64,000 bases of DNA from Eledone cirrhosa. Lineage: Eukaryota. The stretch covers positions 54,126,001-54,190,000 of the forward strand of contig OZ024740.1 of the NCBI GenBank assembly GCA_964016885.1, read 5' to 3'. The notes under the pieces are model-generated. The model worked only from the letters and a program-made list of their open reading frames with translations. It did not search any database and was not told the DNA's origin. Every line of letters starts with the position of its first letter. The stretch's first letter is position 1. Shown piece by piece: positions 5,750 to 6,856 of the stretch. The translations under genes and the position numbers were made by a program.

Positions 5750-6767
5750 TAATGTATTTTGCAATACACTTTATGCTTAATTAAAAGCATTTTGAAGACC
5801 GTATGCTATTGTTTTAGAGTAGTGACAAATTCACTTACTTTATTGATGCTTATCAAGGCTAACTACTCTCGCCTGTCTACTGAGATCACTGATATTATAT
5901 TCTTATAGAATTCTAGTAAATAATCAGGAACTGATTATACAGAGCGATTGCCGGTCAGGCAGAAATTAAAAATTAGAATTGGACCTCTGAGATAGCAATA
6001 TATATATGAATGTATATATAATGTATTTTGCAATACACTTTATGCTTAATTAAAAGCATTTTGAAGACCGTATGCTATTGTTTTAGAGTAGTTACAAACT
6101 CACTAACTTTAATCTCAGCAAACAAGGGGAGATAAGCCGACAAGGCCTTGTTTCGCAATTATTGATGCTTATCAAGGCTAACTACTCCCTCCTGTCTATT
6201 GAGATCACTGATGTTATATTCTTGTAGAATTCTAGTAAATAATCAGGAACTGATTATACAGAGCGGTTGCCGGTCAGGCAGAAATTAAATATTAGAATTG
6301 GAGCTCTGAAATAGCAATATATATATGAATGTATATATAATGTATATATAATGTATTAATTAAGCATAAGGTGTATTGAAAAATACATTATATATACATT
6401 CATATATATATTGCTATTTCAGAGCTCCAATTCTAATTTTTAATTTCTGCCTGACCGGCAACCGTTCTGTATAATCAGTTCCTGATTATTTACTAGAATT
6501 CTATAAGAATATAACATCAGTGATCTCAGTAGACAGGAGGGAGTAGTTAGCCTTGATAAGCATCAATAAATGCGAAACAAGGCCTTGTCGACTTATCTCC
6601 CCTTGTTTACTGAGATTAAAGTAAGTGAGTTTGTCACTACTCTAAGACAATAGCATACGGTCTTCAAAATGCTTTTAATTAAGCATAAAGTGTATTGCAA
6701 AATACATTATACATACATTAATATATATATTGCTATTTCAGAGCTCCAATTTTAATTTTTAATATAC

Positions 6768-6856
<89 letters not shown>

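Follow-up and report, generated by a model that had tools for sequence, protein, structure and literature searches.

Introduction

Animal non-LTR retrozymes, the closest described relatives of the repeats analyzed here, are presented by Cervera and de la Pena (2020; PMC7229834) as AT-rich tandem repeats of 150-450 bp that contain one type I hammerhead per unit, carry no LTR and are predicted to form a self-paired circle. The same article reports two related axolotl families, with units of 330 and 350 bp and different hammerheads, both of which are more active as dimers. According to a recent preprint (Li, Clavereau, Pollet, 2026; bioRxiv 10.64898/2026.07.22.740005), retrozymes derive, as non-autonomous forms, from Penelope-like elements (PLEs) and originated from their pseudo-LTRs (pLTRs); in that work, eight of nine predicted Xenopus retrozyme dimers failed to cleave in vitro. 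The copying of retrozymes into DNA has so far been inferred from co-occurrence and homology.

PLEs are described as inserting into (TA)n targets and as leaving behind partial tandems together with a truncated copy in inverted orientation and a tail of 30-40 bp at one side (Craig, 2021; PMC8557442). A PLE protein was reported to nick and extend both strands of AT-rich DNA, with reverse transcription starting at two sites within the RNA between which the tail lies, requiring RNA 3' of the start and using uncut RNA (Frangieh, 2024; PMC11167929). Hammerheads with a U3-A8 pair in their core have been reported as a natural and active variant (PMC3088659) and are also found in about 1,300 Schistosoma PLE motifs (PMC4209133).

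Here, we analyze two repeat units, A and B, in a 64,000-nucleotide stretch of the Eledone cirrhosa genome (contig OZ024740.1), referred to as the window. In our assessment, A and B very probably represent two diverged non-LTR retrozyme families that are non-autonomous and mobilised in trans by a PLE. This reading draws on features seen in the sequence: homology, compensatory changes, the tandem and inverted layout, the (TA)n flanks and two fixed 3' ends.

Results

Two tandem repeat units and their genomic context

The window is AT-rich and of animal type, with many (TA)n runs and remains of L1/Tx1-like LINEs. Two LINE copies (13522-16873 and 19253-24380) are 71% alike; in the second, an endonuclease-RT frame of 1043 aa has a zinc-knuckle frame upstream. 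Unit A, of 319 bp, is present in three copies within 5752-6763 (A1 and A2 on the minus strand, A3 on the plus strand), accompanied by short partial copies, and unit B, of 310 bp, occupies 61056-64000, 55 kb from A and beyond the coordinates covered by an earlier, sequence-only reading of the A locus (Table 1). Head-to-tail repeats occur in both, as 8.2 copies of B and as the A2-A1 tandem. The ORF list (frames of at least 120 aa) holds none in the A and B arrays except microsatellite frames, and the GC content of the B array is 0.34. A and B are not autonomous PLEs, as they are without an RT or GIY-YIG ORF. With a helix II of 4-5 bp and a long distal stem I, their hammerheads come closer to the canonical size, and they lie in tandem units that are free of ORFs.

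Table 1. Positions of the A and B units, their insertion boundaries and the Penelope-like element in the window
Feature	Position	Strand	Description
Broken Penelope-like RT + GIY-YIG element, CxxC linker	491..2110	-	GIY-YIG Pfam E 1e-8; RT pieces by translation
(TA)n microsatellite	5647..5751	.	Left, tail-less end of A insertion
Copy A1	5752..5996	-	50-nt deletion; 3' end abuts (TA)n right after last hairpin
Copy A2	5997..6315	-	Complete 319-bp unit; ribozyme core from 6175; predicted cut after GUC, 6139
Minus-arm start, 5'-truncated	6316..6355	-	Carries 11-nt duplications; reaches inversion point
Plus-arm start, 5'-truncated	6356..6412	+	Last 57 nt of unit; begins in loop of 3' hairpin 2
Copy A3	6413..6731	+	Complete 319-bp unit
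GC block ctgcc.gaccggcaaccg	6447..6464	+	17/18 identical to B; 4-5 bp hairpin
Type I hammerhead of A3	6521..6618	+	Long distal stem I
Two 3' hairpins common to A and B	6669..6708	+	6 bp and 8 bp; directly before tail-less end
One-sided tail of A	6708..6763	+	About 47-56 nt: AT run + gctatttcagagc...aatttttaat, then (TA)n
(TA)n microsatellite	6769..7108	.	Right, tailed end of A insertion
A mini-copy, little besides tail	6963..7005	-	Inside (TA)n; same end point as plus arm (unit position 29-30)
Unit B inverted arm	61056..61468	-	103-nt partial + one full unit; tail-less end in (TA)n
Unit B tandem	61467..64000	+	8.2 identical 310-bp copies, continuing past window end

The window also contains a broken PLE, which shares 68% identity over 124 aa with a 772-aa RT-endonuclease protein (five relatives in the protein search) and appears Neptune-like by comparison with the elements described by Craig (2021; PMC8557442). 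The fragment, a candidate partner at most, shows that such machinery is present in this genome. In the window, no autonomous partner sharing the flanks of A or B was found, 11 other segments showing ribozyme-core similarity at most; likewise, no pLTR homologous to A or B was found in the window, and the PLE fragment shares only a resemblance to the ribozyme core. The broken PLE is abutted by an arm (2141-2424, plus strand) that has a U3-A8 hammerhead at 2378 and ends in (TA)n, with a second copy at 28843-29127 (88%).

Several other repeat families share this environment. A third U3-A8 hammerhead family (53415, 53613, 54205) consists of a near-identical tandem unit of about 590 bp with a long stem II insert. 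A hammerhead repeat of about 245 bp, with the core CUGACGA and the palindrome ACTAGT, occurs at 3572-4340, 13167-13228, 35958-36658 and 52569-53064; some of its copies have ATGCAAAT, which we take to be an 'octamer' motif, upstream of the ribozyme, and a terminal piece of about 65 nt recurs alone beside microsatellites. A dispersed repeat of about 200 bp (12613-12816, 29503-29564, 34859-35055, 45078-45331, 59522-59655, 60760-60966), in which the type I descriptor finds no hammerhead, has a segment of about 60 nt that lies inverted or in tandem beside (TA)n. Long inverted repeats of 100-480 bp near microsatellites, with no hammerhead detected (8869-10796, 33604-34701, 44629-44934, 54680-55155, 59755-60143), are possibly further PLE-type inversions or MITEs.

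Units A and B are homologous throughout

The sequence-only reading had described the two units as aligning in their flanks, and all the strings it quoted are present. A3 and B indeed align from end to end, with 214 of 303 ungapped columns identical (z 15.9) and a global score of 163, compared with -22 +/- 12 and a maximum of 26 among 1000 dinucleotide shuffles, and the local alignment of both flanks beats 2000 of 2000 shuffles. In a sequence-only MAFFT alignment, identity reaches 58/70 in the 5' block, 48/89 in the ribozyme and 37/53 in the 3' block, and falls below half in both spacers. The two type I hammerheads lie in register in this alignment. Thus, the proposal that the ribozyme structure was kept while its sequence was replaced holds for the structure but overstates the replacement, given that the ribozyme region is collinear and more than half identical. 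'Sister subfamily' is a fair label, although an identity of about 70% makes A and B separate families under the 90% rule given in the preprint of Li et al. (2026).

Recombination between unrelated hammerhead repeats could have exchanged the ribozyme module while the flanks were inherited, in which case the covariation described below would simply contrast two independent ribozymes. On its own, the middle 140 nt does not stand above shuffled sequence in local alignment (136 of 2000 shuffles score equally well). Moreover, among 22 comparisons, the A core resembles the U3-A8 motif at 2378 (p 0.015) and the B core that at 12991 (p 0.005), and contigs of sequencing run X1 are far deeper on the flanks than on the ribozyme, a depth that is not a copy number. 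However, the sequence-only alignment places the ribozymes in exact register with just one 1-nt and one 6-nt gap, seven of the 12 pairs of the distal stem are identical between A and B and the other five show compatible changes, and the U-A state of B at pair 3 of stem II segregates in reads of family A. We therefore regard a module swap as quite unlikely. A putative relic of a second hammerhead in A, at about 6479-6510, was dropped (p 0.06 among the same 22 comparisons).

Both units encode a type I hammerhead

Both ribozymes combine a conserved core, closed by a Watson-Crick 3-8 pair, with an NUH cleavage triplet. That of B has a CUGAUGA core (C3-G8), a 5-bp stem II, GAAA, a palindromic ACGCGU stem III and a GUA triplet, its first core lying at 61641 with the predicted cut after GUA at 61671. 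Unit A has a UUGAUAA core (U3-A8), a 4-bp stem II, GAAA, a 12-nt palindrome as stem III and a GUC triplet; in A3, core positions U3-A9 correspond to 6553-6559, stem II to 6560-6573, GAAA to 6574-6577 and stem III to 6577-6588, with the predicted cut between 6589 and 6590. The exchange of C3 for U and of G8 for A between B and A amounts to a single compensatory change of the 3-8 pair.

Scanning both strands of the window with a type I descriptor yielded 25 hits, whereas the reversed and complemented controls yielded none. It matched A2 and nine B copies but neither A3, which has one mismatch in stem I, nor A1, whose ribozyme is deleted: the 50-nt gap in A1 takes out the 3' strand of stem II, GAAA, stem III, the cleavage site and the 3' strand of stem I. 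At the Rfam gathering threshold, there were no hits in the whole window; below it, only HH9 was matched, with 17.7 bits at A3 and 15.9 bits at A2 against a cut-off of 52. Rfam matches to miRNAs were rejected as artefacts of (TA)n or inverted repeats.

The ribozyme regions fold far more stably than shuffled sequences (z -5.0 to -7.3), and circular units, 57-60% paired, reach z -4.2 to -5.8 (40 shuffles each), with similar values for the antisense strand (z -2.2 to -5.1). The active monomer is computed to lie 4.5, 12.2 and 5.8 kcal/mol above the minimum energy for A2, A3 and B, respectively. For the tandem dimer of A2, the double hammerhead is the minimum-energy fold (0.0 kcal/mol), which supports the retrozyme reading; the corresponding structures of A3 and B lie 12.4 and 4.6 kcal/mol above the dimer minimum and, together with the about equal folding of the antisense strand, count against it. 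In the inactive monomer fold computed for A, the 5' half of the palindrome pairs with GCCUUG at the junction of stem I and core. Overall, these predicted energies fit the published dimer model.

Base pairs are maintained between A and B

The ribozyme of A defines 24 pairs. B departs from A at 13 of these without losing any of them, and ten of the changes are two-sided, the core 3-8 pair included. A conditional null, in which new letters were drawn for these columns according to the spectrum of substitutions observed, gave 3e-5 for this outcome. The count omits the inner part of stem I, where the register shifts, and the fifth and sixth pairs of stem I. When the GC hairpin and both 3' hairpins are included, 98% of 42 pairs are maintained and 13 are changed on both sides, compared with 33-43% paired and zero to one two-sided changes when partners are slid by 1-3 columns; as A and B represent a single split, a shuffle control carries little weight for this 42-pair set. 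The 6-bp 3' hairpin shows one two-sided change, and the 8-bp hairpin, which has the loop GCAA in A and UUCG in B, two two-sided changes and one one-sided change. Two further hairpins were left out of the A-B count, namely an A-only hairpin at 6471-6489, broken at six of eight pairs in B, and one at 6624-6638, which is out of register with the hairpin of B.

In a blind search, 88 shared helices of at least 4 bp were found, with stem II and the 12-bp distal stem ranking first. Nine of the helices contain at least two two-sided changes, and six of these lie outside the proposed structure and are probably chance; helices with two or three two-sided changes thus do occur by chance in this AT-rich pair. 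The covariation had been put forward as strong evidence of selection on RNA structure. Because all of the 13 changed pairs are kept, pairing drops in the slide control and family reads show two-sided changes (see below), such selection is supported, with the qualification that A versus B represents one split of two lineages and that chance helices occur.

Variation within family A and decay of inserted copies

Four of 18 runs, all DNA or unlabelled, were set against A3 (X1, X4, X5 and X16), which provided three contig sets (of 1847, 33 and 2) as well as 3427 raw reads of DNA; nine other runs with small shares were left aside. The variant frequencies are unphased, and 40 of the 85 variants are listed. 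Paired changes are found in all three stems: in stem II, A>T at 6562 goes with T>A at 6571 (32% and 35% in X16; 38% and 32% in X1); in stem III, A>G at 6580 goes with T>C at 6585 (28% and 27% in X16), the palindrome being retained; and in stem I, C>T at 6552 goes with G>A at 6590 (39% and 34% in X16). The last two sites are unmatched in X1 (24% vs 0.3%), where clipped contig ends carry the partner letter. Among the 40 of 85 variants listed, 11 of the 14 at paired ribozyme sites are compatible with pairing and three break pairs; none falls on the 13 core positions (p 0.38, not significant alone), and three (6629-6631) lie in a hairpin loop, with none in its stem. The variant shares of X16 are biased at AATT sites, and the read ends of this run at 6432, 6442, 6497, 6500, 6677 and 6680, considered as element ends, were rejected as they all lie at AATT and thus at library cut sites.

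The copies in the window present a different picture. In A3, the second pair of stem I, beside the cleavage site, is a private C.A; at least 95% of the reads carry the pairing letter there. A2 has a private A.C in the distal stem and a U.U in stem II, so that the gcat/atgc helix assigned to the unit in the sequence-only reading is correct for A3 but not for A2. Taken together, five of the six private changes at paired sites in the three A copies break the pair (three of four in the helices of the A-B count), in contrast to the 17 of 17 changed pairs that are kept between A and B. Because private changes are this disruptive in genomic copies, selection looks like a filter on the propagation of the element itself, with structure kept between lineages and inserted copies left to decay, a pattern to be expected of a selfish element that is filtered as RNA. 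The same observations, together with the private ribozyme damage in all three A copies, make it very unlikely that the host maintains the structure as a domesticated RNA, through selection on the copies in its genome, even though parts of the unit are matched in runs of three organism labels and retrozyme circles are described as abundant in other animals (PMC7229834).

Insertion anatomy and the one-sided tail

Both loci are head-to-head inversions (joints at 6345/6356 for A and 61467/61468 for B), whose arms open with 5'-truncated units and finish in (TA)n. The arms of A and B are truncated at four 5' points, each of which coincides with the loop or base of a predicted 3' hairpin, lies no more than about 110 nt from the unit end and shows a microhomology of at least 2 nt. 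The target of both insertions is (TA)n, and ends in (TA)n would mask any target-site duplication.

The 3' ends fall at two points. At the tail-less end, A1 and the minus arm of B stop directly behind the last 3' hairpin and thus fall 12-22 nt short of the unit boundary (about 12 nt for B, in (TA)n). At the tailed end, the plus arm of A and the mini-copy stop 29-32 nt into the next unit; in one X5 contig (depth 2, other organism label), the unit breaks off at position 28, in front of a TA run. The tail corresponds to the difference of about 47-56 nt between these end points and is found on one arm only, the other end of B lying beyond the window. It contains gctatttcagagc, a motif quoted in the sequence-only reading, and exceeds the 30-40 bp given for PLEs. 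Inverted insertion into (TA)n, with a tail of about 50 nt confined to one arm, is the signature of PLEs. The sequence-only reading recorded neither this arrangement nor the U3-A8 core of A, the covarying 3' hairpins and the private damage in all three A copies.

In seven of seven inverted hammerhead-motif insertions examined, one of which (11347-12310) failed the type I descriptor, one arm meets a TA-rich repeat almost immediately and the other is extended. Six of these are other, unrelated inverted repeats of the window with hammerhead-like motifs (2548-2950, 7354-8564, 11347-12310, 35720-35909, 53264-54522, 55600-55922); they have an extension of roughly 30-170 nt on one arm, and several of them have a perfect palindromic stem III.

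A footprint of this kind could also be produced if the units were orphan pLTR fragments of autonomous PLEs, amplified locally as a satellite with no RNA cycle of their own, their covariation having been fixed in the parent PLEs. Autonomous PLE copies are reported to leave 5' truncations, inversions and tails (PMC8557442), and this route to tandem arrays has been proposed in the preprint of Li et al. (bioRxiv 10.64898/2026.07.22.740005). Rolling-circle copying could account for the 8.2 identical copies of B, but so could amplification of the DNA or polishing of the assembly. However, the arms consist of complete units, arranged head to tail and uninterrupted by ORF sequence, and joints of this type are seen again in X4, X16 and X5, runs of three organism labels (none is listed in X1). 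In addition, tandem arms and single copies share the PLE-type points at which they end, which suggests that the multimer itself was inserted. An origin as orphan pLTRs thus appears unlikely.

The conserved GC block

The GC block, suspected in the sequence-only reading to be a promoter or an RT recognition signal, starts 3 nt past the tailed insertion end, and RT recognition is for this reason favoured over a promoter. The pairs of its hairpin never vary between A and B and are therefore silent on structure; moreover, the stability of the hairpin does not exceed that of shuffled sequences (z -0.95 and -1.27). Within the family, six of the 18 positions of the block are among the 39 variable positions in the listed part (40 of 85) of the A-family variants (Fisher p 0.014), at frequencies of 5-69%, values that flank-only reads of other subfamilies may inflate.

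A promoter that drives transcription of the repeat, in place of an RT signal, would be compatible with the retrozyme reading. The highest identity between A and B lies in unit positions 1-70, upstream of the ribozyme, and the pLTRs of PLEs are reported to contain a promoter (PMC8557442, PMC11167929). Against this idea, strict patterns detected neither an octamer nor the A and B boxes of Pol III promoters in either unit, both units contain runs of at least four T, the conserved stretch spans the mapped tailed end and the block is polymorphic in family reads. A bacterial promoter scan returned no sites and is not relevant to animal DNA. Of the options considered, a role 3' of the RT start is thus the leading one, at somewhat less than an even chance; the absence of any specific role is less probable, and a promoter function, rather improbable, comes slightly behind it. 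A pattern composed of the two conserved 5' motifs matched no loci in viral contigs; the one metagenome locus found with these motifs looks like an unrelated coding region and was set aside as a chance match.

Discussion

Our findings point to a model in which A and B, as non-autonomous retrozymes, would propagate through RNA. Read-through transcription would yield multimers, in which adjacent ribozymes may pair via their palindromic stem III and release monomers that may then circularise; the monomer is predicted to adopt mostly an inactive fold. A PLE protein would nick (TA)n DNA and begin reverse transcription at one of two internal sites, either behind the 3' hairpins or some 50 nt beyond that point, with copying proceeding across the cleavage site. 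As the arms cross the cleavage site, a circular RNA or an uncut multimer would have served as the template. A pair of cDNAs primed on opposite strands might then join head to head; the resulting insertion would be inverted, with one of its arms tailed. RNAs would be copied only if they fold, such that the structure would be kept, whereas the inserted DNA would later decay.

It is tempting to speculate, albeit with less than even confidence, that the individual elements of the unit have assigned roles in this cycle: the two covarying hairpins would set the first RT start, the tail would end at the second, and the GC block would act as a protein-binding or template-boundary element. The inverted insertions into (TA)n, tailed on one side, that several unrelated hammerhead repeats show in the window would then represent direct two-strand rolling-circle footprints of a PLE, and the stem III palindrome of A, together with the duplicated GCCUUG, could form a switch that is off in the monomer and on in the dimer.

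Retrozymes, their link to PLEs, covarying hammerhead families and the U3-A8 variant are already published. A and B are a new pair of families, and the mapping of their ends is the most useful addition. A template of 310-319 nt for which two 3' ends are mapped, and whose conserved parts are revealed by a sister family, provides a ready substrate for the in vitro PLE assay established in 2024, which would test both the mobilisation of retrozymes by PLEs and what PLE proteins recognise. Covariation in the ribozyme is expected for this class, and the A-B pair adds a clean example, including a natural switch from C3-G8 to U3-A8 between sisters. Our literature search, which covered mainly the main texts of freely accessible papers, yielded nothing on the A and B families or on tail-and-inversion footprints of retrozymes. 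Neither 'inverted' nor 'microsatellite' occurs in the main text of PMC7229834, the main text of the Li et al. preprint contains no 'tail', 'covari' or 'promoter', and 'ribozyme' is absent from the main text of a paper on Octopus vulgaris repeats (PMC13282606).

Collectively, A and B resemble the animal non-LTR retrozymes described in PMC7229834 in their repeat size, AT-richness, single type I hammerhead and lack of an LTR; they differ in that they are known from DNA alone and in that A has a U3-A8 pair and a 12-bp palindrome. The preprint of Li et al. (2026) and our analysis arrive at the same origin and mobiliser from different evidence, which consists of co-occurrence and pLTR homology, mainly in vertebrates, in the former case and of an insertion footprint in the latter. 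With endonuclease-containing (EN+) PLEs, as described in PMC8557442 and PMC11167929, A and B share partial tandems, an inverted 5'-truncated arm, a one-sided tail and (TA)n or AT-rich targets. However, those elements are autonomous and protein-coding, with a tail of 30-40 bp, whereas A is non-coding and has a tail of about 47-56 nt.
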